Source: Myxococcota bacterium (GTDB taxonomy: Bacteria > Myxococcota > JACRCW01). Taken from it: a stretch of 64,000 nucleotides of DNA. The stretch lies in NCBI GenBank assembly GCA_040752415.1, contig JBFMGU010000005.1:2988-66987 (forward strand). Direction: 5' to 3'. Below the pieces are notes generated by a model that worked only from the letters and a program-made list of their open reading frames with translations, made no database searches and had not been told where the DNA came from. Numbering within the stretch: the stretch's first letter is position 1; each line of letters begins with the position of its first letter. Position numbers and translations under genes: made by a program. Shown piece by piece: positions 1 through 17,351 of the stretch.

Positions 1-353
1 TATGGGACGTGGCCCTGACGCTTGTGACACGTGCGCGCCACCTGCAGCAGGTTGCGTCCGTCGAGGAATTCCATCACCAACGCCTCGGCGCCGGGCGTCT
101 GGCTCACCTCCAGCACACGGACGATGTTGGGATGCTTGAGGAGCTGCACCAGCCGCTGCTCCTGCAGGAACATGTCCACGAACATGCGGTCCGCGGACAG
201 GTCCGACCGGAGCCGCTTGATGACGACGAGCTTCCCGTCCGGTCCCGTCGCCCGCGCCAGGTACAGCGTGGCCATGCCGCCCTGGGCCAGTCGGTCCATG
301 ACGGTGTAGCCGGGCAGCGTGAAGTCCGCGGCGGATGGCTGGGAAGTCGTCAT
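1..353 (-). CDS. Hanks-type Ser/Thr protein kinase, N-terminal part (runs off window start; not in the ORF track)
   Basis: Manual translation from ATG at 353: MTTSQPSAADFTLPGYTVMDRLAQGGMATLYLARATGPDGKLVVIKRL...MFLQEQRLVQLLKHPNIVRVLEV...LVMEFLDGRNL, matching kinase subdomains I-V. Confidence 0.9.
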   Translation of the reverse strand, partial: MTTSQPSAADFTLPGYTVMDRLAQGGMATLYLARATGPDGKLVVIKRLRSDLSADRMFVDMFLQEQRLVQLLKHPNIVRVLEVSQTPGAEALVMEFLDGRNLLQVARTCHKRQGHVP

Positions 354-556
354 GGAGACCCGGCCGGGAGCATCCCCAGTGTGACGCGGGCGGTCAAATC
401 CGGGCCCCCGCGGGATTGCCCGGGCCACGTTTCAGCGCCGACGCCGCCCTGCTTCAGGATGTTTCACGCGGCGCACCCCCCGGGTACGTTTGTCGACGAG
501 CGGCACACCGGCGCTCCGGGTGGCATGCGGCTTGTAGCCCGACGGGGGGAGGCATC

Positions 557-1831
557 ATGACGCGTGGGCGTGGGCTTGGCCGTCGGGATCTGCTGAAGCT
601 GGCGGGTGTAGGCGCGGGGATGCTGGCCGCGGGTGCGCGCGCGTCCACGTCCACGCAGGTGGAACAGCCGCTGCCGGCCTTCACCGGACCGGGGCCCAAT
701 CCCTACTGGAACTCGGTGGGACCGCTGGTGACGCTCCCGGAGAAGTCGCCACTCATCCAGCTCACCGACCGGCCCGTGCAGCTTGAGACGCCGCGTCACC
801 ATTTCCTGCACGCTTTCACGCCGGCCTCCGCGTTCTTTGTGCGGTGGCACCTGGATGGGCATCCCACGCGCGTGGACCTGGCCACCTGGCGCCTGCAGCT
901 CGACGGACACGTGGAACGACCGCAGCAGTGGTCCTTGGCCGATCTGTTTCAGCGTTTCAAGCCTGTTTCAGTGGCGGCGGTGAACCAGTGCTCGGGCAAT
1001 TCCCGCAGCAGGTTCGAGCCGCGCATCCCCGGCGCGCAGTGGGGCCACGGTGCCATGGGCTGCGCGCTGTGGACCGGCGTGCGTCTCCGCGACCTGCTCT
1101 CCGCCGCGGGCATCAAGCGCGGTGCCGTGCACCTGCAGTGTGAAGGCCTGGACCGCGGGCGCGGGCCGGAGGGGATGGGCTCGCAGCGCTACCTGAAGTC
1201 GCTCCCGGTGGATTCCGAGGTGGCGCAGGAAGCGCTCGTGGCGTGGAGCATGAACGGTGAGCCGCTGCCGTTGCTCAATGGTTTCCCGCTGCGCCTCGTC
1301 GTGCCGGGCCATTTCTCGACGTACTGGGTCAAATCACTGACCAACATCCGCGTGCTCACCGAGGAGGACAAGAACTTCTGGATGGCCACCGCGTACAAGA
1401 TTCCCGACAACCCGCGCGGTCACATCACGCCGGAAGGCGCCAAGCAGGCGTTCCACAAGGTTCCCATTGGCCGGATGCCACTCCGCTCCTTCATCATCGC
1501 GCCCGACGGAACGCAGAAGATTCCCGCCGGCATGCCGGTGACGGTGCGTGGCATTGCGTTCTCCGGTCGTGACGGTGTTCGTCGCGTGGAGCTCTCCGCC
1601 GACGGAGGACAAACCTGGCAGGACGCGACGCTGGGCGAGGACCATGGCAACCACGCGTTCCGCACCTGGACCACCGCGTGGACGCCGACGTCACCCGGCG
1701 AGACAGAACTGGTGGTGCGCGCCACCGACAAGGCGGGGAGCGTGCAGACCGACGATCCTTTGTGGAACCCGGGTGGCTACATGATGGCTCGGTGGGATCG
1801 GCAGAAGATCGTCGTGGGGAGGTCCGCATGA
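557..1831 (+). CDS. Sulfite oxidase family molybdopterin enzyme, SorA/SoxC-like, Tat-exported
   Basis: Twin-Arg signal GRRDLLK; FFVRWH; Mo-ligand Cys in NQCSGNSR; LNGFPLRLVVPGHFSTYWVK; C-terminal Ig-like dimerisation domain; GGAGG RBS before ATG 557. Confidence 0.9.
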   Translation: MTRGRGLGRRDLLKLAGVGAGMLAAGARASTSTQVEQPLPAFTGPGPNPYWNSVGPLVTLPEKSPLIQLTDRPVQLETPRHHFLHAFTPASAFFVRWHLDGHPTRVDLATWRLQLDGHVERPQQWSLADLFQRFKPVSVAAVNQCSGNSRSRFEPRIPGAQWGHGAMGCALWTGVRLRDLLSAAGIKRGAVHLQCEGLDRGRGPEGMGSQRYLKSLPVDSEVAQEALVAWSMNGEPLPLLNGFPLRLVVPGHFSTYWVKSLTNIRVLTEEDKNFWMATAYKIPDNPRGHITPEGAKQAFHKVPIGRMPLRSFIIAPDGTQKIPAGMPVTVRGIAFSGRDGVRRVELSADGGQTWQDATLGEDHGNHAFRTWTTAWTPTSPGETELVVRATDKAGSVQTDDPLWNPGGYMMARWDRQKIVVGRSA

Positions 1832-2670
1832 AGGCCTCGCGTCTGCTGGTGCTCCTCGCGCTCGGCGGGTGCGAGCAATCCCTTCCGCCTCCCGCTCCGA
1901 CGACGGCTGCGCCCCCCACTCCGGCAAAGCCGGCCGACGAGCCTCACGGAATGGGCACGCTGCGTCAGCCCGCGCCGCAACCCGCCCTGCCCCACGCGAC
2001 GTACGCCGTGGCGGGATTCCCGCTCAACACGCCGCCACTTGCGGAAGGGAATGACCGGGAGCTCGTCGAGCAGCACTGTTCCGTGTGTCACGCCACCACG
2101 TACATCACCATGCAGCCGCCGCTGTCCCGCGAGGCGTGGCAGGCCACGGTCAACAAGATGCTCCAGGCCTATGGCGCCCGCATCAGCGACGACGTGGCCA
2201 GCCGAGTGGTGAACTACCTGGCCGCGCACTATGCGCCCGACACCCGCGTGGAAACGCCGCGCAACGTCGGCAGCGACGTGGGGCCGGCGGTGTTCACGCG
2301 TGAATGCCGGATGTGCCACCAGGAGGGAGGGACCGGTTTGGCGGGTGTTTTTCCCCCGCTGAAGGGTCACGCACCGCTGCTGCTTGCCTCACCGGAGCGT
2401 CGGGCGCACCTCATCGACGTGGTGCTGCACGGGCTCAGTGGTGAGATCCAGGTGCAGGGGCAGCGCTACGTGGGTGCCATGCCATCCATGTCGCGCCTCT
2501 CCGACGAGGAGATTGCCGCGGTGCTCAACCACGTCACTCGCGCGTGGGGCAATGATGCGCTGCTTGCCGCGGGTGTGACGCCAATTCGTCCCGACGAGGT
2601 CGGTGCGCGGCGCGGGTCGGGACAGACGGCGGAGCTCAACCATGTGCGACGTGCTTCACTCGGCCTCTGA
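1828..2670 (+). CDS. Dihaem c-type cytochrome lipoprotein (SorB-like domain fused to a c552-like domain)
   Basis: ATGA overlap with upstream gene; lipobox-like LGGC; CSVCH followed by YITMQPPL...WQATVNKM; second CRMCH followed by GVFPPL...GAMPS. Confidence 0.85.
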   Translation: MKASRLLVLLALGGCEQSLPPPAPTTAAPPTPAKPADEPHGMGTLRQPAPQPALPHATYAVAGFPLNTPPLAEGNDRELVEQHCSVCHATTYITMQPPLSREAWQATVNKMLQAYGARISDDVASRVVNYLAAHYAPDTRVETPRNVGSDVGPAVFTRECRMCHQEGGTGLAGVFPPLKGHAPLLLASPERRAHLIDVVLHGLSGEIQVQGQRYVGAMPSMSRLSDEEIAAVLNHVTRAWGNDALLAAGVTPIRPDEVGARRGSGQTAELNHVRRASLGL

Positions 2671-2724
2671 CTGGCCTGGGGAAGGCCGCGACGGCCATGG
2701 GAAAGCGCGGATCAGCTACCGCGG

Positions 2725-3012
2725 TTCCCGTTGAAGTTGTCGCGCCTCGTGACCTCCGGGTCGCAGCTGGCGCACCGCTGGTCCGAGCGAAAGCGGCACT
2801 TCATGCCGCAGTCCGAAAGGGTGCGGGCACCGCTCCGATTCGTGGAATTGCGAACGCCCGCACCCGTGCCACGTCGGGGAACGTGCCGGCCCGTCCACGA
2901 GAGCGAACGCTGCCGGCACTTTCGGACTGCGGCATGAAGTGCCGCTTTCCCTTGGACCAACGCGGCGACCTCCGCCGGATGGAGCCACGCAGCGTGACAA
3001 CTTCAACGGGAA
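2725..3012. repeat. Nested inverted-repeat element (REP/MITE-like)
   Basis: Outer IR TTCCCGTTGAAGTTGTC(G/A)CGC at 2725-2745 and 2992-3012; inner IR containing AAAGCGGCACTTCATGCCGCAGTCCGAAAG at about 2781-2819 and 2912-2958. Confidence 0.85.
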
Positions 3013-3082
3013 GCACGGAGCGGCTCCCGTTGGAGTTGGCCGTGGCGGAGGGTGAACCTGGCACCTGCGAAGCGCTGGTTAC

Positions 3083-3220
3083 TGGCCGCGGAATCGCAGA
3101 CAAGAATGGCTGCGCCACGGGGAATGACGCCGTCGATATCGTGAACCTGCGGGCATCGGTGGTCGAAGCGCCTTCAAATTCCCCGTGGCGCAGCCATTCT
3201 TGTCTGCGATTCCACGGCCA
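3083..3220. repeat. 43-bp inverted repeat pair (REP-like family 2)
   Basis: TGGCCGCGGAATCGCAGACAAGAATGGCTGCGCCACGGGGAAT (3083-3125) and its reverse complement with one mismatch (3178-3220). Confidence 0.85.
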
Positions 3221-3281
3221 AGGGCCATCACTTCCCCCGTCACTCTGAATGGGAACCGCGATATGAGGGCGCTGGGCATGT

Positions 3282-4145
3282 TCAACGTAGCGCAGCGCCG
3301 CCCCTGCCCTCCGTCAGCAACGCGTCGACGATGCCGTGGAACACCGCCCTCTCGCCCTCCTGACCCACCGCCGCAATCGGCGTTCCCTCGTCGCATGCCA
3401 CGCGGATGCGCTCGTCCAAGGGGATCTCCCCCAGGAACGGCACGCCGTAATCCTCCGCCAGCATCCGTCCCCCGCCCTCCCCAAAGGGCCGGTACACCAC
3501 TCCCGTGTCCGGCGCGACGAAGCAGCTCATGTTCTCCACCACGCCCTTCACCGGCACGCCCACCTCCAGGAGCATGCGCAGGGCGCGACGCACGTCGTCG
3601 GTGGCCACGGTCTGCGGCGTGGTCAGGACCACTGCGCCGGTGATGGGGAGCTCCTGCGCCATGGTGAGCTGCACGTCGCCCGTGCCCGGCGGCATGTCGA
3701 TGATCAGGTAGTCCAGCGGGCCCCAGGCCACGTCGTCCAGCAGCTGGATGATGGCCGCGGTGGCCACCGACGAACGCCAGATGAGCGGCGTGTCCGACTC
3801 CGGCATGGTCAGCCCCACGCTCATCACCTTCATCCCAAAGTTCTCCGCCGGGACCATCTTTCCGTCGTCATTCCACCGCACGCGCTCGTCCTCCACCTGC
3901 AGCATGCGCGGAACGCTGGGCCCGTACACGTCGGCATCCAGGATGCCCACCACAAACCCGCGCTGCGCCAACGTGCTGGCCACGTTCACCGCCACGGTGC
4001 TCTTGCCCACGCCACCTTTCCCGCTGGTGAACACCAGGACGTTCTTCGCCCACGGAGCGCGGTTGTGCGGAGCACGCGTGTGTCCCCAGGTGATGTCCGG
4101 CTCCTCGCCTTGCTGGCGCGGACGGCCAATCTGGACCAGCGCCAT
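3282..4145 (-). CDS. mrp: Mrp/ApbC/NBP35 family Fe-S cluster carrier ATPase
   Basis: SGKGGVGKST, DADVYGPS, DMPPGTGD, GVVENMS motifs; start overlaps upstream stop (TGATG). Confidence 0.93.
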   Translation of the reverse strand: MALVQIGRPRQQGEEPDITWGHTRAPHNRAPWAKNVLVFTSGKGGVGKSTVAVNVASTLAQRGFVVGILDADVYGPSVPRMLQVEDERVRWNDDGKMVPAENFGMKVMSVGLTMPESDTPLIWRSSVATAAIIQLLDDVAWGPLDYLIIDMPPGTGDVQLTMAQELPITGAVVLTTPQTVATDDVRRALRMLLEVGVPVKGVVENMSCFVAPDTGVVYRPFGEGGGRMLAEDYGVPFLGEIPLDERIRVACDEGTPIAAVGQEGERAVFHGIVDALLTEGRGGAALR

Positions 4146-4549
4146 CACAGACACCCCTTGAAGGCACCCGGCTTCGGCTTGCGCGCCACGGTGTATTCCT
4201 CGACGTCAACCGTGGCCACGCCGGTCTTCTTGTCCAACTTCACCACCTTGCCGGTGAAGTCGATGCTTCCGCCGCCGAACGCCTTCTCCAGCTCAAAGCG
4301 GAACACCTTGCGGGAGGAGATCCGGTAGATCTGCATCTCCGCCACGTCGACAACGACGATCTCCTTCTGCGCCTCCGCCAGCGGACACGCCGTGATGCCA
4401 TCCAGCTTGCCGCTCTCGCGTGCCGCCAGCGCGCAGGAGAGCGCGGTCACCGCACCGGACGTGACCTCCACCTCCTCGCCCTTCTCCACGGCACCCGCTG
4501 GGACAGCCGCCAACAACACCGCCACGGAGAAACCAATGACCCGTCTCAT
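4145..4549 (-). CDS. Small secreted protein with C-terminal KPKPGAFKGCL tail
   Basis: Sec-type signal peptide; two internal Cys plus penultimate Cys; translationally coupled on both sides; GGAGG RBS. Confidence 0.8.
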   Translation of the reverse strand: MRRVIGFSVAVLLAAVPAGAVEKGEEVEVTSGAVTALSCALAARESGKLDGITACPLAEAQKEIVVVDVAEMQIYRISSRKVFRFELEKAFGGGSIDFTGKVVKLDKKTGVATVDVEEYTVARKPKPGAFKGCL

Positions 4550-5730
4550 GGGGCCTCCTCCTGTTCCGTCGACGTCGTGACGCCCAGCGTGCGCAGGTAC
4601 GCCACCATCGCCGCCACGTCCTCCTTGGACATCGTCCCGAACGAGGGCATGCGCGAAACCCGTTTTCCCTGCGCATCCACCGTCGACCAGTCGGATAGAC
4701 CGCTGGTGGGGAAGACCTCCGTCACGCCCGGGGCCTGCGGACGGCGCAGGTGCTGATTGGGATTGGGCGAAGGCACCACCACCTCACTGGGCTGCGTGAT
4801 GGAATCCCGGAGGTAGGACGGGCTGGCAATGCCGCCAATGGTGGTGAGGTCCGGCGCCATGCCCGGAGCCGCCAGCCGCTTCTCACCGACGTGATGGCAC
4901 GCCACGCACACCGACTCCACCAGGATCCTTCCCTTGGCCACGTCGCCCAGGTCGCCTGGCCGGTGGCCCCACGCCACTTCGTTCACATAGCGTTCACTTA
5001 GCGCGCGGTTGGGAACGCGCAGGAACTTCCACGCGGTCAACGACTTGTTGCCACCTCGCTCGCTGTGGTTCCCGTCCCAGACCGCCAGCGCAAACGGAAT
5101 GAGCCCCTGACGCAGGTCACCGCCATGCGCCACGAGCGGACGGACGAAGACGGCGCGCCAGCGGTGCGTGGTGACGTCGTAGCCCAGCGACATCCGCACT
5201 CCGTCCATCGCCGCACGCGTGGAGGACCCGAAGCCGGCCGCCACCGCGGTGCGCACCACTTGGCCCGTCGACGCGGCGCGCTGGTGGTAGAGCACCACCG
5301 GGTTCGCCTCATCCCCCATGCCCACGTACGGCAGGCGGATGCCCTCACCGAAGCGCTGGGGAACCTGCAGCGCCACTGCGTCGCCAAAGACGCTCGTCTC
5401 ATCGGGGCGAATGCGATCCTCCGTGGCGTCCTCCCACTCCACGTGGACACCAATCTCGCTCGACGAGACCGCAGCGCGGACGGACAGCTTCCTCGGCTTC
5501 GCCGTTTGCAGCGCCGCGTTCGCCACCTTGTCGTTGAGATGCAATGAATGTTGGGGATAGGCGAGCACGGTGGCCGGTGGAATGGATCTCCACAGCGCGT
5601 CGTCAACGCGGTCAGGAATGGGGCCCTTCACCTCCTGCACCAGCACCGTCTCCGACGTCATGAATGGATCCCCGGCACTGGCGCTCACCACCGCCTGCAA
5701 GCCCACCATGACGAACAGCAGCGTTCCCAC
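4546..5730 (-). CDS. Type II DMSO reductase family gamma subunit (EbdC/DdhC/SerC-like haem b domain) fused to a cytochrome c domain
   Basis: EWEDATED, DAVALQVP, PYVGMGD (Met), AVWDG...ERGGNKS (Lys) resemble the EB_dh haem-b domain; C-terminal CVACH...MPSF. Confidence 0.85.
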   Translation of the reverse strand: MGTLLFVMVGLQAVVSASAGDPFMTSETVLVQEVKGPIPDRVDDALWRSIPPATVLAYPQHSLHLNDKVANAALQTAKPRKLSVRAAVSSSEIGVHVEWEDATEDRIRPDETSVFGDAVALQVPQRFGEGIRLPYVGMGDEANPVVLYHQRAASTGQVVRTAVAAGFGSSTRAAMDGVRMSLGYDVTTHRWRAVFVRPLVAHGGDLRQGLIPFALAVWDGNHSERGGNKSLTAWKFLRVPNRALSERYVNEVAWGHRPGDLGDVAKGRILVESVCVACHHVGEKRLAAPGMAPDLTTIGGIASPSYLRDSITQPSEVVVPSPNPNQHLRRPQAPGVTEVFPTSGLSDWSTVDAQGKRVSRMPSFGTMSKEDVAAMVAYLRTLGVTTSTEQEEAP

Positions 5731-5733
5731 GAC

Positions 5734-6783
5734 TCACCTCACCGGCGGCGCGGAGACCGCCTTCACGCCACGGCGACCAATCTGCACGAGGCCGTTCTCC
5801 TGCGGCGCGCCAATCCGGAACATCTCGCTGTGCTTGTACGCAATGAGAACGTCCATGAGCTCGGAGCGCTTGCCCTCCTTGCGCTTCTTCATCTCCTTCT
5901 CCAACGTCGCCAGCGCGGGACGCACGCCGCTGCCAAACAGGCTCTCCAGGTAGGAGATGGGAATGCGCTCACTGTTGGGAATGGGCTTGCCGTCCTTGTC
6001 GAACTTGGGCGGGCCCGGGAGTGGGGGCACGTAGAAGACGTTGGGCTGCGTGCCGTACTCGGGATGCAGCGGCAGCGCGACCTTGTACTCATTTACCAGC
6101 TTGTGGACCTGCCCGTCCTTGTCGTCGAGGTAGCCGACGAAGCGGATGCGTCCCACGCACTGCTGAGCGCACGCCGGCGGCAGTCCCTTCTCGACGCGCG
6201 GAAAGCAGAAGATGCACTTCTCCGACTTATAGATCTTCGGGTTGAAATAGACCTTCTTGTACGGACACCCGGCAATGCAATAGCGCAGCCCCTCGCACCG
6301 CTGCTGGTCGACGAGAACCACGCCGTCCTGGTCCCGTTTGAAGATGGCCCCTCGAGGACACGCGGCCAGGCATCCCGGGTTGGAGCAGTGGTTGCAGATG
6401 CGCGGCAGGTAGAAGAGGTGGGAATTCGGGAACTCACCCGCGCCTTCATCTTCGTCCCAGTTGGGCCCCACGCGCGGGGTTCCCTGCGGTTCAATCTCGT
6501 GGCCCAGGGCGGCTTCGTCGAGATTCAGATCCCACGGCGTGCCGTAATCGGCGGAACGGTTGGGCACCACGCCTTCTTGCAGGTTGCCCGCGGCGTCAAA
6601 GCCTCCTCCCATGTCCTCCCACTTGCGCGGATAGCCGGCGCCCGGCTTCGTCTCGACGTTGTTCCAATACATGTATTCGCGGCCATTGCGATTGGTCCAC
6701 TGGGTCTTGCAGGCCACGGTGCACGTCTGGCAGCCAATGCACTTGTTCAGGTCCATCACCATGGCCAGTTGTCGCTTGGACAT
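5734..6783 (-). CDS. Type II DMSO reductase family beta (Fe-S) subunit, NarH/SerB/EbdB-like
   Basis: DLNKCIGCQTCTVAC; WNNVETKPG; CNHCSNPGCLAACP; CEGLRYCIAGCPYKK (3Fe-4S type); CIFCFPR...CAQQCVGRIR; HPEYGTQPNVFYVPP. Confidence 0.95.
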   Translation of the reverse strand: MSKRQLAMVMDLNKCIGCQTCTVACKTQWTNRNGREYMYWNNVETKPGAGYPRKWEDMGGGFDAAGNLQEGVVPNRSADYGTPWDLNLDEAALGHEIEPQGTPRVGPNWDEDEGAGEFPNSHLFYLPRICNHCSNPGCLAACPRGAIFKRDQDGVVLVDQQRCEGLRYCIAGCPYKKVYFNPKIYKSEKCIFCFPRVEKGLPPACAQQCVGRIRFVGYLDDKDGQVHKLVNEYKVALPLHPEYGTQPNVFYVPPLPGPPKFDKDGKPIPNSERIPISYLESLFGSGVRPALATLEKEMKKRKEGKRSELMDVLIAYKHSEMFRIGAPQENGLVQIGRRGVKAVSAPPVR

Positions 6784-6792
6784 GGATCCTCC

Positions 6793-9678
6793 TCAGGCCT
6801 TCGCCAGGTCGACGGTGGCTTCGTAAGCGTGCTGGTTCCCGTCCCAGTTGGTGCCGAACTTCAGGTGACCCCAGCCGTCGCTCACCTCGAGCAGGTTGAG
6901 CATGTCCCCCACGAGCAGGTTGTGACCCTTCTTCCGTCGGTACATGAACGGTTCCCAGCCATGCTCCATGACGACGGCATCGGGAGGCACGCCCGGTGCA
7001 ATCTTCGCCATGAGCACCACGTCGCCCATGTCGTTGAACATGCGGACTTCGTCTCCGTCGGAGATGCCGCGAGCACGGGCCACGTCCGGGTTGATCATCA
7101 CGTACGGGCGACCGCCACGCTGCAGGCGTTGCAGGATGGGTGACGTCTTGTACATGGAGTGGATGGACCAGCGCGCGTGCGGCGTCATGAGCAGGAACGG
7201 GAAGCGCTTGGGACGAATGGGCTCCCGCGCGGTGGGCACATGCGCGCCGGTCTCAATCCATAACGGGTGGTCCACGTAGAAGGTCAGCCGCCCCGTCACC
7301 GTCTCGAAGCGATGGCGCAGGAACAGCTGGCTCTCGAACGTGTTGTACGGCTTGTCCTTGTACAGCGGTGACGTCTTGCCCGCCTTCTCGTTGAGCACCA
7401 GGAAACCGCCGCGCTCCACCACCGTCTTCGGTGTGTTCGGCTTGAACTGGTCCACGTGTTCCAGCGCATACTCCACGGCGTCGCGGTCGGAGCGGATGCG
7501 TCCGTCCAACGTGTATTCCTTCACCAGCTCATCCATCGCGTGGAAGCCGGACTGCGTGTGCGCGGCGTCGGGAATGCGGATGTAACGCTGGTCTCCCGTC
7601 TCGCGGTGCTTGCGGGTGGCAATCTCCTGCAGCTTCTCGACGAGCAGGACCGCGATCTCCCACTCCGACTTCGCCTCACCCACGCGCTTCAAGCCAGCGG
7701 GAGGCACCGCCAGGTTGGCGAAGCGGTGATAGCCGGGATTCGTTCGGATGTCCCACGTCTCATAGTGGGAGGCGCAGGGCAGCAGGATGTCCGCGTAGGT
7801 GGCAAAGTCGCTCATGCGCACGTCGCCATACGCAATGAACCTGGCCTTCTTGAGGAACGCCTCCTTGTAGCTGCCCTTGTTGCGTCGGAAGCGGGAATCC
7901 GCGAACAGGAGGAACGTCTCCACCGTGGTCCAGTACGGCTTGCCCTGCTTCTCACCGGGGTCATTGGCGCTCTTGTCCAGCAGCGCCTGCACCTGCTTGC
8001 GGTACTCCGCCTTCCCCTGCCCGGTGCTGCGACGCACGTCCTCGTCGGCGAAGTGCTTCTCGTAGTCGTTCATGCCTTCGCCCAGCACGAACTCACTGAC
8101 GAAGCCGGAGGCAAAGCGGTGCGTGTAGCGACCGTCGAAGCCGGAGAGTCCCTGCAGCCCGGTGATGTTCCACTCGTTCTCGGTGTTGAGGCCGCCATTC
8201 GGACCCAGCTTGCCGGTGAACGCGGCCAGCGCCGCAATGGCACGCTGGGAGAGCATCCCATTGAAGTGCTTACCCACCGCGAAGCCCATGGTGATGACGC
8301 CATTCTTCGCCGTGGCCAGGTCGTGCGCCAGCTCGTCGACAATCCGGGGATGCACACCGGTGAGCCTGGCGGTCTTCTCCGCGCTGAAGCGACGCAGCTC
8401 CTCTTTCATGACGGAGAACGCCGTGGTGACCTCCACCTCCTTGCCGTCCTTCAGCCTGAGCTTCCAGCGTCCATCCAGCGCGGGGTTCACCTTCCAGGAG
8501 ATGTCCTCCAGCCGCAGCGTGTCGACGGTACTTCCCTCACAACCGGGAAGGGGCGTGAACTTCTTTGTCCTCGTGTTGAACGCCAGGAAGACCTCATGGT
8601 CCTTGGCGCCCTCCCCCGCGAAGATGGCGCGGAGGGCCTTGTCAAAGCGCGGGTCCCCCTCGTCGACATCGTGGAGGCGGACCAGCTCCCGGGTGTCCAG
8701 TCGCACCAGAAGCGGGAGATCGGTCAGCTCCTTGAGGTGGCGTTCCTGGTAGAGCTTCTTCTCGATCATCCGCTGCAGGATGGCCAGCGCGAGGTGACCG
8801 TCGTAGCCGGGCTTGAGCGGGACCCAGAGGTCGGCGTGGATGGCGGTGGAATTGAACTCCGGAGTGATCACCACCACCTTGGAGCCGTTGTACTTGCCCT
8901 CCCAGATGTAGTGCGCGTCGGGGATGCGCGACGTGTTGGGGTTGCAGCCCCAGAAGATGGAGAGGTTGGTGGTGTAGAGGAAGTCGTAGGTGCAGCCGAT
9001 GTTCCCTTCGCCGTAGACCACCGACGCGCCGGGAAACATGTCTCCCACGTAGCTGGCAATGTACGGACGCACGGCCCCTAACAGCGTGCCCAGCCGCTTG
9101 ATTGACGCAGCGCGCGCCTCGGTGAGCAGACCCGCGCCGACGTGGATGTAGTTTCCCTCCGGGCCCTTCTCCAGCATGGTCTTGTAGAGCTGGTTCGCCA
9201 CCTCGGTGAGGGCTTCATCCCAGGAGATGCGCTTCCACTTTCCCTCCCCGCGCTCCCCCATGCGCTTCATGGGGTACAGCAGGCGGTCCGCCTCATACAT
9301 GACCTGCGAGTGCTGCACGCCCTTGTTGCAGCCGCGCGGGTTGGCGTCGGGAATGTCCGGAGCAATCTGCGGATAGGAAGCGGACTGGTTCTCCCGCGTG
9401 ACCCGCCCGTCCTGGACCCAGACTTCCCACGCGCAATTCCCCTGGCAATTCACGCAGTGGTACGCAAAACCGTGGGCCTCACCGTCGCCATACGTGCCGG
9501 CAAACTCCTGGCGATAGAGATCTTCGGTGGACTTCGTGTCCGGATAGGCGGTGCGCGGGTCGTCCACGCGGACCGGGTGGGGAAGCGGCTGTTCCTGCTG
9601 GGCCACCGCGCGACTCGCGGCGCCCGCCGCCCCCACTGCCAACAGGTTCTTCAGGACGTCACGACGGGAAAATGGCAT
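6793..9678 (-). CDS. Type II DMSO reductase family Mo-bisPGD catalytic alpha subunit, Tat-exported (Ser/Clr/Ddh/Ebd-like; substrate unknown)
   Basis: SRRDVLK Tat signal; FS0 motif HCVNCQGNC...NPRGCNKG; likely Asp Mo ligand in SYVGDMFPG; WGCNP; TPHARWSIHS. Confidence 0.93.
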   Translation of the reverse strand: MPFSRRDVLKNLLAVGAAGAASRAVAQQEQPLPHPVRVDDPRTAYPDTKSTEDLYRQEFAGTYGDGEAHGFAYHCVNCQGNCAWEVWVQDGRVTRENQSASYPQIAPDIPDANPRGCNKGVQHSQVMYEADRLLYPMKRMGERGEGKWKRISWDEALTEVANQLYKTMLEKGPEGNYIHVGAGLLTEARAASIKRLGTLLGAVRPYIASYVGDMFPGASVVYGEGNIGCTYDFLYTTNLSIFWGCNPNTSRIPDAHYIWEGKYNGSKVVVITPEFNSTAIHADLWVPLKPGYDGHLALAILQRMIEKKLYQERHLKELTDLPLLVRLDTRELVRLHDVDEGDPRFDKALRAIFAGEGAKDHEVFLAFNTRTKKFTPLPGCEGSTVDTLRLEDISWKVNPALDGRWKLRLKDGKEVEVTTAFSVMKEELRRFSAEKTARLTGVHPRIVDELAHDLATAKNGVITMGFAVGKHFNGMLSQRAIAALAAFTGKLGPNGGLNTENEWNITGLQGLSGFDGRYTHRFASGFVSEFVLGEGMNDYEKHFADEDVRRSTGQGKAEYRKQVQALLDKSANDPGEKQGKPYWTTVETFLLFADSRFRRNKGSYKEAFLKKARFIAYGDVRMSDFATYADILLPCASHYETWDIRTNPGYHRFANLAVPPAGLKRVGEAKSEWEIAVLLVEKLQEIATRKHRETGDQRYIRIPDAAHTQSGFHAMDELVKEYTLDGRIRSDRDAVEYALEHVDQFKPNTPKTVVERGGFLVLNEKAGKTSPLYKDKPYNTFESQLFLRHRFETVTGRLTFYVDHPLWIETGAHVPTAREPIRPKRFPFLLMTPHARWSIHSMYKTSPILQRLQRGGRPYVMINPDVARARGISDGDEVRMFNDMGDVVLMAKIAPGVPPDAVVMEHGWEPFMYRRKKGHNLLVGDMLNLLEVSDGWGHLKFGTNWDGNQHAYEATVDLAKA

Positions 9679-9694
9679 GGCAGCTCACGGGGGC

Positions 9695-10156
9695 TCAGAG
9701 ACAACCGCCTCCCGCGCCAGGCTTGGGCGGGGAGTACTCACCGGAATCCTCGGGCAGGCCTGCTTCACTCCATGCCTTCATCCCGCCGGCGAGGTTGCGG
9801 GCATTGACGAAGTAGCCCAGGCATTTCCCGTGTTCCGCCCGGCTCCCCTCGTCGGAGACCACCACGGTGGGAACCGACGGCAGGATGCGTTCCTGGATGA
9901 CCTCGGGAACCGCCTTGGCGTCACAACCGGGGAACGGGATGGCCCCGGGAATGTGCGTGCCCTCGTAGTTCTCCGACGGATCCGGGCGCACATCCACCAC
10001 CTGCACCTGGGCGCGGGCCAGCGTTTGATAGAGCTCCTTCGGCGTCAGCGGCAGCTGCTGCTCCAGCCTCGCCTGACGTCGACCTTCCGCGACGTTCAAG
10101 AAGCCCAGCACCAGGATCAGGACCGCGTAGCCCACGGGTTCCAGGACGCGCTTCAT
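9695..10156 (-). CDS. Membrane-anchored rhodanese-fold protein with C-terminal PPKPGAGGGCL tail
   Basis: N-terminal TM helix; VVDVRP, THIPGAI, LAGGMKAW rhodanese signatures; active-loop position reads VVVSDEG (no Cys). Confidence 0.85.
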   Translation of the reverse strand: MKRVLEPVGYAVLILVLGFLNVAEGRRQARLEQQLPLTPKELYQTLARAQVQVVDVRPDPSENYEGTHIPGAIPFPGCDAKAVPEVIQERILPSVPTVVVSDEGSRAEHGKCLGYFVNARNLAGGMKAWSEAGLPEDSGEYSPPKPGAGGGCL

Positions 10157-10284
10157 GGCGTTGCTCCTTGCCCGCTGGTGGCCACCTTCTGCTCCAGCTC
10201 GGCGTTGTGACGACGCAGTCCAAGCCAACCCACCAGCAGCCCGACGATGACACCGACGAAAAGCACGCGAACGGATTTCTTCAT
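10153..10284 (-). CDS. 43-aa single-TM membrane peptide
   Basis: MKKSVRVLFVGVIVGLLVGWLGLRRHNAELEQKVATSGQGATP; fills the operon gap; ATGA overlap with the downstream gene. Confidence 0.6.
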   Translation of the reverse strand: MKKSVRVLFVGVIVGLLVGWLGLRRHNAELEQKVATSGQGATP

Positions 10285-10294
10285 CGCTTCGCCC

Positions 10295-11422
10295 TCAGTC
10301 GTAGACGCGGTCGCCGCGGAGCTGCGCCTGGGTGAGATCCAGGGAGCGCAGGACCAGGAGGCGTGCGTTGGACGTCGCCATGGACGCCGCAAAGAAAGTT
10401 CCCGCCATGGCCAGGCTACCCAGCGACAACGTGGGCCACGCGGAGATGAACGCACCGGTGGTGCATCCGCCGCCAATCATGGCTCCCAGGCACATCACGG
10501 TGGTGGCGGAGAACGTGGTGATGATGGCCTTCACGTCGAGCACGCGCTCCACCGGCTGGGCCACCGCGGCCCGGGACGGGATGGAGAACATCCGCGCGAG
10601 ATAGCCGCCAGGAAGCAGTCCCACGAAGAGCGCGGCGCGCCACAGGATGTCGTCGTTGATACGAGGCACCAGCTCCAGCGGATGGCCCACCAGGTGGAAC
10701 ACCCAACCCACGAATGCCAGCACACCGCCGGAGAACCCCAGGTAGCCGCCCTGCCACGTGGCCATGACGACGAGGATTCCCGCCACGGTTCCCGCCGCGC
10801 CCCAGCTCCACTCGCCACGGATGTAGTCCATCACCGTGGTGCGCTCGCGCGCGGGTTCATACGAGGCTTCCGGTGTGAGCCGGTCCACCACCAGCGCAAT
10901 CACCATGAACAGCCCACCCCACGCCAGGGCCAGCGCGCCATAGGGGAGTCCCAACACGCCGTGCAGCGTCAGCGGCTTCTGGTTGACGGCGATGATGCCC
11001 GCGTTGGTGAGCGGATCCTTTAGCGCCGCATAGAGCAGCACCCCGACAAACAATCCCACCGTGGCAGCGGTGGCAACCCACTTCTTCTCCCCGCCCCGAC
11101 CGCCCGCCTTGGCAACACAGGTCCCGGGGCACAATCCGGAGACGCCCATGGCCGCACCAAACAGCACACCGCCGAGGACGTGGGCGTAACCCAGGAACGG
11201 CATGACGCGGGGCACCAGGCCAAGGCCCTCGGAAACACCCAGCGCGGCAGCCAATCCGTAGAGCAAGGAGGCCACGCCAATCGCGGTGAATGCGAACTTC
11301 ATGACCTTCGTGTCGCGTAGGGTGAGCATCCCCATGACGCGCGAGTACCGGGTAGCGCCCACCTTGTAGAGGACGACCCCAAACGCCATCCCCGTCATGG
11401 CCCCTTTGACGAAAGCAAGCAT
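10295..11422 (-). CDS. YeeE/YedE family sulfur-compound (thiosulfate-type) transporter, two fused halves
   Basis: Multiple TM helices; GGVLFGAAMGVSGLCPGTC and GAMIGGGCTTG motifs. Confidence 0.9.
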   Translation of the reverse strand: MLAFVKGAMTGMAFGVVLYKVGATRYSRVMGMLTLRDTKVMKFAFTAIGVASLLYGLAAALGVSEGLGLVPRVMPFLGYAHVLGGVLFGAAMGVSGLCPGTCVAKAGGRGGEKKWVATAATVGLFVGVLLYAALKDPLTNAGIIAVNQKPLTLHGVLGLPYGALALAWGGLFMVIALVVDRLTPEASYEPARERTTVMDYIRGEWSWGAAGTVAGILVVMATWQGGYLGFSGGVLAFVGWVFHLVGHPLELVPRINDDILWRAALFVGLLPGGYLARMFSIPSRAAVAQPVERVLDVKAIITTFSATTVMCLGAMIGGGCTTGAFISAWPTLSLGSLAMAGTFFAASMATSNARLLVLRSLDLTQAQLRGDRVYD

Positions 11423-11440
11423 GCCGTCCTCCCTGGGTTC

Positions 11441-12388
11441 TCACTGCTGCGGCGTGCCCAGCGGCAGCGACTCCGTGTTGCCCCACTCATTCCACGAGCC
11501 CACGTACAGCTTGGTGTTCGCGTGACCGGCCTTGCGCAGCGCCAGGTACTGGAAGGATCCGCGGCCCAGTCCCACGTGGCAGTAGCTGATGACCGTCTTG
11601 CTCGGGTCGTAGCCATTCTTCTTGAGCTTCTCGAGCTGCTTCTTGAGATCGTCGGCGTCGCGCAGCGTCGGCTTGTCCGCATCACCGCCCTTGTTGCCGG
11701 CGTACTTGCTCCACGGGGAGAACACCGCGGTGGGGATGAATCCGCCGCGAGCCACCGTGACCTCCTTGCCGGGAGACTTCATGCCCGCCTGCAGCGTCTT
11801 GCCGGTGTACTCATCCAGGTTGTGACGCGCGTCGACGATGAGATAGTGCGCACCGTCGCCCGTGGCCTTCTTCACCTCGTCAACCGAGGCGATCATGTCC
11901 CACTGGACACTCGGTGTGAACGTCTTGGCCGCCGGCTTCTTGGCCGCGCCGGTCTCCAGCGCGCCACCATGCGCCTTCCACGTGGCCAGGCCTCCGTCGA
12001 GGATCTTCACGTTCTTGTGACCGTAGAGCGCCAGCAGGAACCAGTTGCCGCTCGCGTTGACGCCGGCGCCCCCGTCGTAGACCACCACCTGCGTGTTGGC
12101 GTCGATCCCCAACTCGCCGCCAATCAGCTTGGCCGCGTTGGGCTCACACAGCGGGAGCCCCTTGCACGCGCGCACGTCGTCCAGCAGCGGAATGTCATGC
12201 GCATACGCCACCACGGAGCCGGGAATATGGCCCTTCTCGAACTCCTTTTCAGCGTCGGAAAAGACGAAGCGGACCTCCGGCTTGCCGGCCAGTGCCTTGG
12301 CTTCCTCCACGCTGATGAACAGCTCGTCCGCGCGCGCGGATGGCGCCACCAGGAGTCCCACGACGGTCAGGAACAACGCCTTTTTCAT
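11441..12388 (-). CDS. Periplasmic tandem-domain rhodanese/sulfurtransferase
   Basis: Sec signal (…PSARA); GHIPGS; LDGGLATW; catalytic YCHVGLGRGS; LYVGSWNEW. Confidence 0.9.
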   Translation of the reverse strand: MKKALFLTVVGLLVAPSARADELFISVEEAKALAGKPEVRFVFSDAEKEFEKGHIPGSVVAYAHDIPLLDDVRACKGLPLCEPNAAKLIGGELGIDANTQVVVYDGGAGVNASGNWFLLALYGHKNVKILDGGLATWKAHGGALETGAAKKPAAKTFTPSVQWDMIASVDEVKKATGDGAHYLIVDARHNLDEYTGKTLQAGMKSPGKEVTVARGGFIPTAVFSPWSKYAGNKGGDADKPTLRDADDLKKQLEKLKKNGYDPSKTVISYCHVGLGRGSFQYLALRKAGHANTKLYVGSWNEWGNTESLPLGTPQQ

Positions 12389-13092
12389 TTCGCCTTTCTC
12401 CTTCTTGAAACAGAGGTCGCGGACACACCCGGACGAGGTGCCTTGCGCCCCCGCGGGCGGTACGCCGCCACGTCGGGAAAACCGAGATCAAGGTGCCGCG
12501 CCTGGAAGCCCACGGAAGCCAGGAGATTCACGGCCTCCAGGGCCATGGGGCAGTAGGGACCGCGGCAATAGGCCACCACTTCGCGTCCTTTAGGGATCTC
12601 CGCCAGACGACGACGCAACTCATTGAGCGGGATGCACAGCGCGCCCGGCAGGTGCCCGGATTGGAACTCCTCCGACGGACGGACATCCAGCAGCGTCACC
12701 TCGTCCGCCTCAATCCGCGCCAGGAGCTCTTCGCGCTCGTCGTCCGCCAGCGTCTTCAGCGCGCCGCGCAGCCGGTCCATCTCCGGCAGCCGGACCTCCG
12801 CCAGGCCGCGCAGCGCCGCAAAGAACGCCGACACGGACTCATCCGCCAACCGATAGATCACGCGCTGGCCTTCCTTGTGTGACTCCACCAGGCGCGCCGC
12901 GCGGAGCTGCTGCAGGTGCTGGGAGGTGTTGGTGAGCGCAACGCCCGCCGCTTCCGCCAGGGTTTCCACGCTGCGTGGCCCCTGACGCAGGAGGTCCAGG
13001 AGACGCAGACGGATGGGATTGGCGAGCGCACGGCCGATGCGCGCGAGGTTGCTGTAGTGGGCGAGCGCCAGGGCGCGAAGGTCATTGTCCAT
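12385..13092 (-). CDS. ArsR/SmtB family regulator fused to a rhodanese domain
   Basis: LANPIRLRLLDLL...SQHLQQLRAARLV HTH; LDVRPSEEFQSGHLPGA; YCRGPYC. Confidence 0.93.
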   Translation of the reverse strand: MDNDLRALALAHYSNLARIGRALANPIRLRLLDLLRQGPRSVETLAEAAGVALTNTSQHLQQLRAARLVESHKEGQRVIYRLADESVSAFFAALRGLAEVRLPEMDRLRGALKTLADDEREELLARIEADEVTLLDVRPSEEFQSGHLPGALCIPLNELRRRLAEIPKGREVVAYCRGPYCPMALEAVNLLASVGFQARHLDLGFPDVAAYRPRGRKAPRPGVSATSVSRRRKAK

Positions 13093-13105
13093 TTGCGAAT
13101 TCTCT

Positions 13106-13127
13106 TATTCCATGATTCTATGGAATA
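13106..13127. promoter_or_regulatory. Palindromic operator, probable site for the ArsR-rhodanese regulator
   Basis: Perfect 8-6-8 palindrome TATTCCAT-GATTCT-ATGGAATA in the AT-rich divergent intergenic gap. Confidence 0.7.
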
Positions 13128-13176
13128 CGTCAAGAACGTTCCCGCGCGGTCCCGTCCGCGTGGGCAGGAGGCCTCC

Positions 13177-13578
13177 ATGACCCGTCATTTCCAGCAGCTC
13201 AGCGCTGCTCTGCTTCTCTCCGCGGCCGCGGCCATCTCCCTGGCTGCTGACGTCGCCAAGCCCCCCAAGCCCACGAAGGAGCTGCTGGACAAGGGGAAGG
13301 CCGTCTACACGGTCAACTGCGTGCTCTGTCACGGCGAGAAAGGCGACGGGAACGGTCCCGCGGGCGTTGCGCTCAACCCCAAGCCCAGGGACTTCAACAA
13401 GGATCCCTTCAAGCAGGGCACGCAGCCGGCGGACGTGTTCAAGACCGTCACCGCGGGCGTCGCGGGGACCACCATGGTGGGCTGGCCGCAGCTCTCCGAG
13501 GAGGACCGCTGGGCGGTGACGTATTACGTGCTGGAGATGTTGCCCAAGGACAAGAAGAAGGCGCCCGCCAAGCGCTGA
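13177..13578 (+). CDS. Periplasmic monohaem cytochrome c
   Basis: Signal peptide; CVLCHGEKGDGNGP...PKPRDF...GTTMVGW; GGAGG RBS. Confidence 0.9.
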   Translation: MTRHFQQLSAALLLSAAAAISLAADVAKPPKPTKELLDKGKAVYTVNCVLCHGEKGDGNGPAGVALNPKPRDFNKDPFKQGTQPADVFKTVTAGVAGTTMVGWPQLSEEDRWAVTYYVLEMLPKDKKKAPAKR

Positions 13579-16864: not shown

Positions 16865-17351
16865 GACGGGCTCCCTCCTTCCCAATCCGGCGCGCCGCTT
16901 CCTCCACGGCGTCGACGATCTTGGTGTAGCCCGTGCACCGGCACAGGTTGCCCCCCAGCGCCTTCTCAATCTGCTCTCGCGACGGTGACGACTCCGTTTC
17001 CAACAAGGCTCGCGCGCTCATGAGCATTCCCGGCGTGCAGAAGCCACACTGCGTGGCTCCCAGCTCCACGAATGCCTGCTGCAAGGGGTGCAGATCCGGG
17101 CCGCGCGCCAGCGCTTCCACGGTCTCCACCCGTCGTCCGTCCACGTCCGCGGCCAACATCAAACAGGAGAGCACCGGCGCCCCGTCGACGAGAACCGTGC
17201 ACGCTCCGCATTCTCCACGGTCGCAGCCGCGCTTGGTGCCGGGCAGATCGAGAATCTCGCGCAACAATTGCACCAGCGTCACATTGGGTGAGATCGCCGC
17301 GCGAACCGAATCTCCGTTGATGATCGCTTGGATATCCAGGAGGCGCCGCAT
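16857..17351 (-). CDS. hcrC: 4-hydroxybenzoyl-CoA reductase gamma subunit (2x 2Fe-2S); start could be 17405
   Basis: GCDRGECGACTV, QCGFCTPG, NLCRCTGY. Confidence 0.85.
   Translation of the reverse strand: MRRLLDIQAIINGDSVRAAISPNVTLVQLLREILDLPGTKRGCDRGECGACTVLVDGAPVLSCLMLAADVDGRRVETVEALARGPDLHPLQQAFVELGATQCGFCTPGMLMSARALLETESSPSREQIEKALGGNLCRCTGYTKIVDAVEEAARRIGKEGARHG

Follow-up and report, generated by a model that had tools for sequence, protein, structure and literature searches.

The 64,000-nucleotide stretch of Myxococcota bacterium DNA analysed here (GenBank assembly GCA_040752415.1, contig JBFMGU010000005.1, positions 2,988 to 66,987 of the forward strand; hereafter the window) holds a cluster of genes for a molybdenum (Mo) enzyme of the type II dimethyl sulfoxide (DMSO) reductase family, with a catalytic (alpha), an iron-sulfur (beta) and a haem (gamma) subunit. 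The three genes are bracketed by those of two small proteins, one of them exported and the other membrane-anchored with a rhodanese fold, and both of these end in nearly the same C-terminal tail with a penultimate cysteine (Cys). Our analysis suggests that the tails are Cys-tipped swinging arms of the kind known from DsrC and SoxY, which would carry sulfur on two unrelated scaffolds as part of a new periplasmic sulfur-oxidising system; we put the probability of this reading at roughly one half. By analogy with the known arms, the tail probably presents protein-bound sulfur to the molybdenum enzyme. As judged from its sequences, the system appears to be largely periplasmic, conserved, and built around a type II enzyme with a bis(pyranopterin guanine dinucleotide) molybdenum cofactor (Mo-bisPGD).

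Results

Two unrelated proteins share one tail

The small exported protein is encoded by an open reading frame (ORF) of 134 amino acids on the minus strand (4145-4549) with the C-terminus ...ARKPKPGAFKGCL. The ORF of the tailed rhodanese, as listed, runs from 9695 to 10228 on the same strand and has the C-terminus ...YSPPKPGAGGGCL; its homologues start at the ATG that gives 9695-10156 and a protein of 153 amino acids. A first-pass annotation of the window, made from the sequence alone, had reported both tails with their positions, had described the two genes as bracketing alpha, beta and gamma, and had seen no other similarity between the proteins. Translation of the two minus-strand tail stretches (Table 1) reproduces the reported sequences, both tailed genes do flank alpha, beta and gamma with all five genes on the minus strand, and a profile-profile alignment of the two families covers 17 tail columns only, at a probability of 5.9%. 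Comparison of the two tail DNAs revealed no repeat, and an origin by a repeat or a recent duplication is not supported.

The sharing of the tail is not chance. A six-frame scan of the whole 11.0 Mb source genome gave 98,897 stop-to-stop frames of at least 60 amino acids, of which 12 end in GCL. PKPG shortly before this end occurs in three frames only, namely the small protein, the tailed rhodanese and a protein with a DsrC domain. When the end was widened to GC[LIVMF], the same 98,897 frames held no further tail-bearing family apart from the DsrC-domain protein, and among the 6,986 frames of the 52 homologous loci described below there is no third frame ending in GC[LIVM].

Both tails are strongly conserved. 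The small protein has 324 database relatives at an expect value (E) <=0.001; the best 120 of them, which are 59-100% identical to it, were examined, and all 120 end in FKGCL. Counted from the C-terminus, G-7, F-5, K-4, G-3, C-2 and L-1 are each present in 120/120, and the consensus of the tail is [KR]-P-K-[PA]-G-[AS]-F-K-G-C-L. The invariant residues of the family include C39, C55 and the tail C133. An exhaustive profile search of 1.84 billion representatives at 50% identity returned 36 matches, 24 of which reach the profile end; 23 of these end in GCL and one in ACL. The remaining 12 matches comprise two fringe full-length relatives (P0211 and P0214) besides fragments and frameshift-like sequences. 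Two AT-rich fringe members were seen to have no GCL tail, one of them bearing a Cys-rich C-terminal extension instead.

For the tailed rhodanese, 66 relatives fall within the listed length range; 65 of them have E <1e-30, and all 65 end in GGCL or SGCL. Its tail consensus is E-Y-x-P-P-[KS]-x-x-[AG]-G-G-G-C-L. The two families have P-10, K-9, [PA]-8, A-6, G-3, C-2 and L-1 in common, and in both of them E-Y/F-S/T tends to occur a few residues upstream of the tail. The penultimate Cys, on which the first-pass annotation had built its idea of a carrier, is invariant in both families (C-2 in 120/120 small proteins and in 65/65 rhodaneses). The PKPG that it had given as part of the shared motif did not hold as strictly: of 65 rhodaneses, 54 have K at position -9, and -8 and -7 vary.

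The tail resembles the arm of DsrC

The tail had also been proposed as a previously unnamed carrier motif. This part of the proposal needs correction, since the tail closely resembles the known arm of DsrC/TusE, PKPTGCV, and since the DsrC-domain protein of the source genome itself ends in IPKPGGCL. Five DsrC sequences shown from the Protein Data Bank (PDB), out of eight matched, end in PKPTGCV. The DsrC-domain protein (L001:6238-7257, on another contig) has 339 amino acids and the C-terminus AGIPKPGGCL; it is a DUF1641 protein fused to a C-terminal DsrC/TusE domain, which occupies its last 95 residues (PF04358, 1.2e-27; TIGR03342, 1.1e-22). It stands between a gene for a Pyr_redox_2 flavoprotein of the disulfide-reductase type and a DsrE-like gene (L001:4949-7758, contig C90), an arrangement that looks like a cytoplasmic sulfur-relay locus.

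According to the accessible part of PMC3397948, the penultimate Cys of DsrC is strictly conserved, is the sole sulfur-binding residue and lies on a flexible C-terminal arm, which inserts into a cleft of DsrAB. What DsrC, TusE and DsvC (PF04358, TIGR03342) have in common with both of our tails is a flexible C-terminal arm with a penultimate reactive Cys, in a sequence close to Pro-Lys-Pro-x-Gly-Cys-aliphatic. DsrC is cytoplasmic, whereas the small protein is exported, and the partner here is a Mo-bisPGD enzyme rather than a sirohaem or Hdr-type enzyme. By analogy, the tails may work like DsrC arms without being members of that family, the same design with three more residues.

Both tailed genes are linked to alpha

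One genome per species (GTDB) was scanned with two patterns, one of which was the tail itself (K[PA]G[AS]FKGCL), and 52 loci were obtained. The majority carry the label Myxococcota (Anaeromyxobacteraceae, Myxococcaceae and Archangium among them); the label is Bdellovibrionales or Bacteriovorax in three, and in a few it says no more than 'Pseudomonadota' or 'bacterium'. The counts of neighbouring genes are unbiased because the neighbours were not selected for, and the same is true of the database, representative and 401-genome searches. The tailed rhodanese gene lies immediately before alpha in all 46 loci with enough upstream DNA, and all 46 proteins end in GGCL; in every one of the six loci without it, the contig ends less than 4 kb upstream of the small gene. 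The small gene always directly follows gamma. Forty-two loci share the order double rhodanese, YeeE-like gene, tailed rhodanese, alpha, beta, gamma, small protein. In two loci of metagenome-assembled genomes (MAGs) labelled Bdellovibrionales/Bacteriovorax (L040 and L048) the YeeE-like gene is found downstream of the small gene with the rhodanese still before alpha, and in L040 the double rhodanese is relocated too. The remaining two of the 46 loci are cut upstream.

Among 401 genomes sampled evenly from the phylum, searches detected alpha (cut-off E <=1e-100) in 39 genomes, the small protein in 41 and the rhodanese with the tail (cut-off E <=1e-20) in 38. The sets are nested: the 38 rhodanese genomes lie within the 39 alpha genomes and these within the 41 small-protein genomes, and the two extra small-protein genomes are fragmentary hits. 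As to the test proposed in the first-pass annotation, whether hits of the tail motif map next to this clade of alpha, the 46/46 loci and the nested sets show both genes tied to it; a single genome, G229, is an exception for one of the two tails, having alpha and no tailed rhodanese. The G229 cluster (genome 99% complete; locus L054, C18:663500-673500) consists of regulator, double rhodanese, alpha, beta, gamma, small protein and Mrp, and its small protein keeps the tail (KKKKAGAFKGCL). A literature search, with most subscription journals and supplements outside its reach, found no description of the cluster, of the small protein, or of a rhodanese with such a tail.

A possible fusion with the YeeE-like gene was considered as a clue to the topology and the partner of the tailed rhodanese and was rejected, the YeeE-like gene keeping its own stop in 46/46 loci. 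Long open frames seen at the loci are out-of-frame artefacts of GC-rich DNA.

Scaffold of the small protein

The N-terminus of the small protein, as read from the sequence, resembles a Sec signal peptide. Some distant relatives have lipoprotein-type signals in its place, with a Cys after the hydrophobic stretch (e.g. ...LIGGCG and ...LAAGCG), and because the N-termini are of one or the other kind we regard the family as exported. The distant relatives P0204-P0206, P0208, P0211 and P0214 combine lipoprotein-type signals with longer N-terminal linkers.

The small protein has no match in Pfam or NCBIfam, and the ESM Atlas returned clusters of 'hypothetical protein' only. Its AlphaFold2 model, computed from a 40-row alignment, has a mean predicted local distance difference test score (pLDDT) of 83 and a predicted template modelling score (pTM) of 0.72 and shows a beta-barrel accompanied by short helices. 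A Foldseek search of the PDB yielded no match at E <=0.001. The best match in VIA-align (wide) was potempin A at Z 6.3, with a root-mean-square deviation of 3.5 over 77 residues; the oligonucleotide/oligosaccharide-binding (OB) domains of AspRS and RPA followed at Z 5.0-5.5, which are generic OB-like matches. These searches with a predicted model are no evidence of a new fold. A metallochaperone identity was likewise tried: the CusF/SilF-like row reached a Z of only 4.5, and the idea was set aside because this value is weak and because it gives no reason for a rhodanese to share the tail.

Scaffold of the tailed rhodanese

The tailed rhodanese matches PF00581 with 47.7 bits (cut-off 22.2). Its AlphaFold2 model has a pLDDT of 91 and a long N-terminal helix (residues 5-33), and Foldseek returned 81 matches at E <=0.001, all of them rhodanese-type among the matches listed. 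Both tails are the low-confidence ends of otherwise confident models: residues 131-134 of the small protein have a mean pLDDT of 60, as against 83 for residues 121-130, and the last blocks of the rhodanese model, which form its tail, have 62 and 51. The models are thus consistent with the flexible arms that the first-pass annotation had supposed.

Three Cys are invariant in the rhodanese family, C78, C112 and the tail C152. Within the rhodanese domain C78 sits in PFPGCD and C112 in K-C. By the usual topology of rhodaneses C78 would lie near the edge of the active site, and it might pair with the tail Cys in the manner of the CysB of DsrC. The canonical catalytic Cys is absent from the tailed rhodanese, because the active-site stretch FCKTAARA of Sud aligns onto SDEGSRA with the Cys of Sud opposite an Asp, and because the residue in the catalytic column differs between family members (D, G, A, E, Q, K or T in the 23 that were aligned). 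The alignment suggests that the conserved Cys has effectively moved to the tail.

Searched by sequence against the PDB, the tailed rhodanese has a single full-length match, Sud of Wolinella succinogenes (PDB 1qxn; E 0.0019), which is also a fold match. Sud is a rhodanese-fold sulfur carrier, a periplasmic polysulfide-sulfur transferase which is said to serve a periplasmic Mo enzyme, polysulfide reductase. Sud carries its sulfur on the Cys of the active-site loop, whereas the tailed rhodanese has a non-Cys residue there and its conserved Cys on the C-terminal arm. Moreover, Sud is soluble and the tailed rhodanese anchored, and the families of the partner enzymes differ.

The N-terminus of the tailed rhodanese looks like a single hydrophobic helix, both in the sequence and in the AlphaFold2 model. 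In the two most divergent members and in that of locus L052 it resembles a classical signal peptide. Because of these signal peptides, and because the small protein, alpha, gamma and the double rhodanese carry export signals, we lean towards a rhodanese domain that faces the periplasm, an orientation we consider somewhat better than an even bet.

An anchored protein beside an enzyme without its own membrane anchor invites a structural explanation, in which the tail Cys would serve as a disulfide tether (e.g. between rhodanese Cys152 and small-protein Cys133) that holds the soluble enzyme at the membrane, or the tail as a C-terminal sorting or modification signal without a part in catalysis. 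A structural disulfide was the refuting case named in the first-pass annotation. The explanation fits the observation that alpha, beta and gamma have no anchor and the rhodanese has one helix, and a periplasmic rhodanese domain would put both Cys in an oxidising compartment. We nevertheless judge it very improbable. G229 keeps the tailed small protein without the rhodanese, and two like tails suggest recognition by one third party rather than of each other. The C-terminal sorting signals known from myxobacteria have a hydrophobic segment, whereas the sequence here stops after Cys-Leu without one, and the likeness to the DsrC arm points away from a purely structural role as well.

The small protein is predicted to dock at the tunnel of alpha

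Complex prediction was carried out with alpha residues 71-961 and small-protein residues 27-134, using alignments of 27 and 40 rows. The interface score ipSAE was 0.81 (0.79, 0.81 and 0.82 in single runs), and the best of three controls reached 0.00; the prediction supports binding of the small protein to alpha, one of the partners that the first-pass annotation had envisaged for the tails. In the calibration, 58 of 80 solved complexes attained this ipSAE, as did 2 of 110 mismatched pairs; these counts are only rough because our own alignments were used. The partners have a pLDDT of at least 83, the runs agree in at least 65% of contacts, and there are 82-88 contacts. We know of no solved complex of this kind, which makes it unlikely that the predictor merely reproduced a known structure.

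The confident contacts of the small protein (53-61, 79-92 and 127-128) comprise a conserved face and the start of the tail and coincide with the invariant or near-invariant residues P56, E59, K80, V82, R84, L87, E88 and G92. On alpha they lie at 378, 385-394, 493, 504-506 and 764-789, and the interface residues R389, I505, G767, K768, S770, P771, E782 and L787 are invariant in 27/27 orthologues. The nearest solved relative of alpha is the perchlorate reductase PcrA (4ydd, E 2.5e-116). In the alignment D213 corresponds to D170 of PcrA, which we take to be the Mo ligand, I207 to F164, A208 to Y165 and W503 to W461. F164, Y165 and W461 make up the gate of the substrate tunnel in PcrA (accessible part of PMC6650914). 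At the first two gate positions the bulky residues give way to I207 and A208, both small and invariant in 27/27 orthologues of alpha. Contacts 493 and 504-506 of alpha adjoin W503, the residue aligned to W461, and the small protein is therefore predicted to lie beside the gate Trp. Five residues lead from G128 to C133, enough for reaching inward.

A large interface made by the folded body (82-88 contacts, ipSAE 0.81) would also be expected of a stable subunit. The small protein might therefore be a permanent fourth subunit whose tail Cys works in trans, in the active site or as a gate, on a free small-molecule substrate (e.g. thiosulfate, tetrathionate, polysulfide or an oxyanion) and is not part of a cargo arm; the tail of the rhodanese would then be a competing plug or a regulator of the tunnel. 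A small gene invariably next after gamma and a small protein present in 39/39 alpha-holding genomes speak for this, and so does the replacement of F164/Y165 by I207/A208, invariant in 27/27, which would leave room for a peptide in the tunnel. Such a scheme, on the other hand, leaves unexplained why the same arm occurs on an anchored rhodanese with a dead active site and why it resembles the cargo-carrying arm of DsrC, and the tail is modelled as flexible. In our view it is rather unlikely.

Genes around the two tails

The cluster and its neighbours are listed in Table 1. Beta meets the threshold of TIGR03478 (532.1 bits, cut-off 480.7). Alpha reaches 790.6 bits against TIGR03479 (cut-off 984.75) and is a clear relative of the type II alpha subunits by sequence, outside the threshold of the curated subfamily; its residues H74, C78, C82 and C117 are invariant. 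Gamma has one CxxCH at residue 275 and scores 101.7 bits with TIGR03477, below the cut-off of 169.85. The alpha-beta-gamma layout, the twin-arginine alpha with H-x3-C-x3-C and an Asp ligand, and the EB_dh-type gamma are shared with type II DMSO reductases such as PcrAB, EbdABC and NarGH, a family to which Ser, Clr and Ddh also belong. The cluster differs from those systems in having no NarJ-type chaperone gene (the one PF02613 match of the genome lies on a different contig), a gamma subunit that includes a cytochrome c domain by fusion, and an additional partner, exported and OB-like, that bears a Cys arm; moreover, two of the three gate residues of PcrA are replaced.

Table 1. Features of the cluster and its surroundings, in window coordinates.
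Feature	Position	Strand	Remarks
SorA-like Mo enzyme of the sulfite oxidase family	557-1831	+	Twin-arginine signal; convergent with the cluster
Dihaem cytochrome c	1828-2670	+	Lipoprotein-like signal; two CxxCH; overlaps the SorA-like gene
Mrp/ApbC-type (NUBPL) P-loop iron-sulfur transfer ATPase	3282-4154	-	In many loci downstream of the small gene, same strand
Small exported protein, 134 amino acids	4145-4549	-	Signal peptide; OB-like beta-barrel (residues ~26-122); tail
Tail of the small protein, KPKPGAFKGCL plus stop	4145-4180	-	Translation
Gamma subunit	4546-5730	-	Signal peptide; EB_dh (haem b) domain; C-terminal cytochrome c domain
Beta subunit, four-cluster iron-sulfur subunit of the type II DMSO reductase family	5734-6783	-	
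Alpha, Mo-bisPGD catalytic subunit	6793-9678	-	Twin-arginine signal SRRDVLK; H-x3-C-x3-C FS0 motif
Membrane-anchored rhodanese-fold protein, 153 amino acids	9695-10156	-	N-terminal hydrophobic helix; no canonical active-site Cys
Tail of the rhodanese, PPKPGAGGGCL plus stop	9695-9730	-	Translation
YeeE/YedE-like membrane protein (Sulf_transp)	10295-11422	-	PF04143
Double rhodanese with signal peptide	11441-12388	-	Catalytic Cys in YCHVGLGR, second domain
ArsR-type helix-turn-helix regulator fused to a rhodanese domain	12385-13092	-	Upstream in many, not all, loci
Small monohaem cytochrome c with signal peptide	13177-13578	+	Divergent from the regulator

The YeeE-like protein matches PF04143 with 84.9 bits (cut-off 27) and scores 31.8 bits with the TsuA equivalog NF052577, below the cut-off of 400; its residues C98, C102 and C320 are invariant in 42/42 cluster orthologues. 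A channel with three Cys, a small Cys protein for sulfur transfer and a thiol-sensing repressor also come together in the YeeE/TsuA-YeeD/TsuB and SoxT-TusA systems, as described in the accessible parts of PMC11582611 and PMC11073785. There the partner of the channel has a TusA fold, whereas here it would be an anchored rhodanese fold with a C-terminal arm.

The double rhodanese matches ExtH, the rhodanese of selenite/tellurite operons, weakly (53.3 bits, cut-off 200); 3-mercaptopyruvate sulfurtransferase is the better of these two matches with 103.2 bits and is likewise under its cut-off. A SorA-like homologue (34-41% identity) is found within the fetched flanks in 16/52 loci, often right after the small gene, and a homologue of the small cytochrome c in 19/52, mostly just downstream of the cluster.

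These genes bear on the question of the element. In a selenium system alpha would be a selenate-type or related oxyanion reductase, and the arms, the rhodaneses and the YeeE/YedE-like channel would move selenium as Cys-S-Se. Alpha does belong to the type II group together with oxyanion reductases, its best solved relative at E 2.5e-116 being perchlorate reductase; the double rhodanese has its weak match to ExtH (53.3 bits, cut-off 200); and a YedE-like protein reportedly takes part in selenium transport in Methanococcus, a finding cited in the accessible part of PMC11582611. Against selenium stand the SorA-like genes beside the cluster in 16/52 loci and an ExtH match that is far under its cut-off and is exceeded by 3-mercaptopyruvate sulfurtransferase at 103.2 bits, itself also below threshold. 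The homologue and locus sequences inspected contain no selenocysteine variant of either tail, and the arm resembles that of a sulfur carrier. We consider a selenium system quite improbable.

Some further features of the window may be mentioned. Taken from its listed GTG start, the Mrp/ApbC ORF shares 10 nucleotides with the end of the small gene, comprising the stop and the codons just before it, which suggests either translational coupling or a later true start. No Rfam family reached its gathering threshold within window positions 1-16000. The gap between the dihaem cytochrome and Mrp genes is occupied by three long inverted repeats at 2719-3234 (33, 49 and 57 nucleotides with 85%, 90% and 88% complementarity, two of them nested), again without an Rfam match. 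Beyond the cluster, two large minus-strand ORFs of 337 and 805 amino acids (13579-16969) look like the FAD-binding and molybdopterin subunits of an enzyme of the xanthine-dehydrogenase/CO-dehydrogenase type.

Discussion

Taken as sulfur-carrier arms, the tails would fit into the following scheme. The small OB-like protein would be dedicated to alpha, in effect as a fourth subunit. With its conserved body seated at the mouth of the substrate tunnel, it would move Cys133 in and out on its tail of about 11 residues. The double rhodanese, which has kept its catalytic Cys, would mobilise sulfane sulfur, for example from thiosulfate, and load the arm as a persulfide. The loaded Cys would be swung into the Mo site, where alpha would oxidise the protein-bound sulfur; electrons would leave via the Fe-S clusters of beta to haem b and haem c of gamma and on to a soluble cytochrome c, and sulfite would be dealt with by the nearby SorA-like enzyme.

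The anchored rhodanese would act as an accessory second carrier, linking the sulfur pool either to alpha or to the YeeE-like channel. Alpha is suggested as the partner of its arm because the tailed rhodanese is fixed just before alpha. The channel is suggested because the tailed rhodanese and the YeeE-like gene are jointly absent from G229, and because it has been proposed in print, in the accessible part of PMC11582611, that the Cys of SoxY passes sulfur along the three Cys of the YeeE-like SoxT channel. A link of the rhodanese arm to the Cys triad of the YeeE-like protein would serve import or signalling to the ArsR-rhodanese regulator.

The families of myxobacteria that carry the cluster are largely aerobic. 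Because of this, of the fusion of gamma with a cytochrome c and of the SorA-like neighbour, oxidation appears to be a better guess than reduction.

A functional parallel would be the Sox system. The Cys of SoxY lies in a Gly-rich C-terminal arm, GGCGG, and SoxCD oxidises the carrier-bound sulfane; the GGGCL of the rhodanese tail is also Gly-rich. Neither tailed protein matches SoxY (PF13501) in a Pfam scan, and the source genome, 96.8% complete, contains no PF13501 match. The tail Cys is penultimate, whereas that of SoxY is central in GGCGG, the scaffolds here are an OB-like barrel and a rhodanese fold, and the Mo enzyme belongs to the type II DMSO reductase family rather than, like SoxCD, to the sulfite oxidase family. 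According to the accessible part of PMC11582611, the carrier SoxYZ is periplasmic and binds its sulfur at a conserved Cys.

A number of observations weigh against the interpretation of the tails as sulfur-carrier arms. The sequence constrains neither the direction of the reaction nor the element, sulfur or selenium, and the nearest solved relative of alpha is a perchlorate reductase. The likeness to the DsrC arm is imperfect and may be convergent: the tails are three residues longer (PK[PA]G-xxx-GCL versus PKPTGCV or PKPGGCL), the arms of the tailed proteins have no second Cys, and neither protein matches PF04358 or TIGR03342, which the positive control L001:6238-7257 does. As to conservation, the FKGCL end in 52/52 loci is a biased count, because the scan pattern contained the tail, and the fringe relatives P0211 and P0214 have a different C-terminus without the tail. 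The cluster of G229 lacks the YeeE-like gene as well as the tailed rhodanese, and at E 1e-20 the rhodanese was not found elsewhere in that genome either; since G229 keeps alpha and the small protein all the same, the second arm is dispensable for alpha. In the predicted complex, the position at the tunnel mouth is deduced from closeness in sequence to the equivalent of W461 rather than from a measured distance. The last six residues of the tail (129-134), with the Cys among them, lie outside the confident contacts, and the model contains no Mo cofactor; for these reasons the entry of the Cys into the tunnel is only inferred. Finally, the lysine and arginine (K/R) counts that bear on the topology of the rhodanese are ambiguous: with a 15-residue C-flank compared to a much shorter N-flank of the helix, the C-flank has more in 38/65 sequences, the same number in 19 and fewer in 8, and 16 rhodaneses of the 'MSLEP' type have no K/R before the helix.

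More specifically, the true substrate of the type II Mo-bisPGD enzyme may be the sulfur on a DsrC-like arm of an OB-like fourth subunit docked at the tunnel mouth, a counterpart of SoxYZ/SoxCD made from unrelated parts, with the second arm, that of the rhodanese, exchanging sulfur with the Cys triad of the YeeE-like protein, so that a protein-channel-protein relay would run across the membrane. We offer this full version tentatively and think it more likely to be wrong than right.

Conclusions

Cys-tipped arms as in SoxY and DsrC/TusE are central to dissimilatory sulfur metabolism, and each of them has so far belonged to one scaffold and one set of enzymes. Carrier arms as such are already known; what appears to be new, judging from the gene clusters, is that such an arm is borne by these scaffolds, of which one or both are exported, and is tied to a type II Mo enzyme. 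A DsrC-type arm is now found on two other scaffolds, at least one of which is outside the cytoplasm. Both tailed genes are genetically locked to a clade of Mo-bisPGD enzymes that lacks an assigned substrate and occurs in roughly one in ten genomes sampled from the phylum (39/401).

If the arms carry sulfur, they would define a new family of carriers and provide a substrate for an orphan clade of molybdoenzymes. The published idea that a carrier Cys hands sulfur to a YeeE-like channel, as set out in the accessible part of PMC11582611, would become directly testable. The cluster would also offer an entry point to sulfur oxidation in myxobacteria of soil and sediment, the source genome having no SoxY match, and the relay system, if real, would span Myxococcota, Bdellovibrionales-labelled genomes and a few other MAGs.

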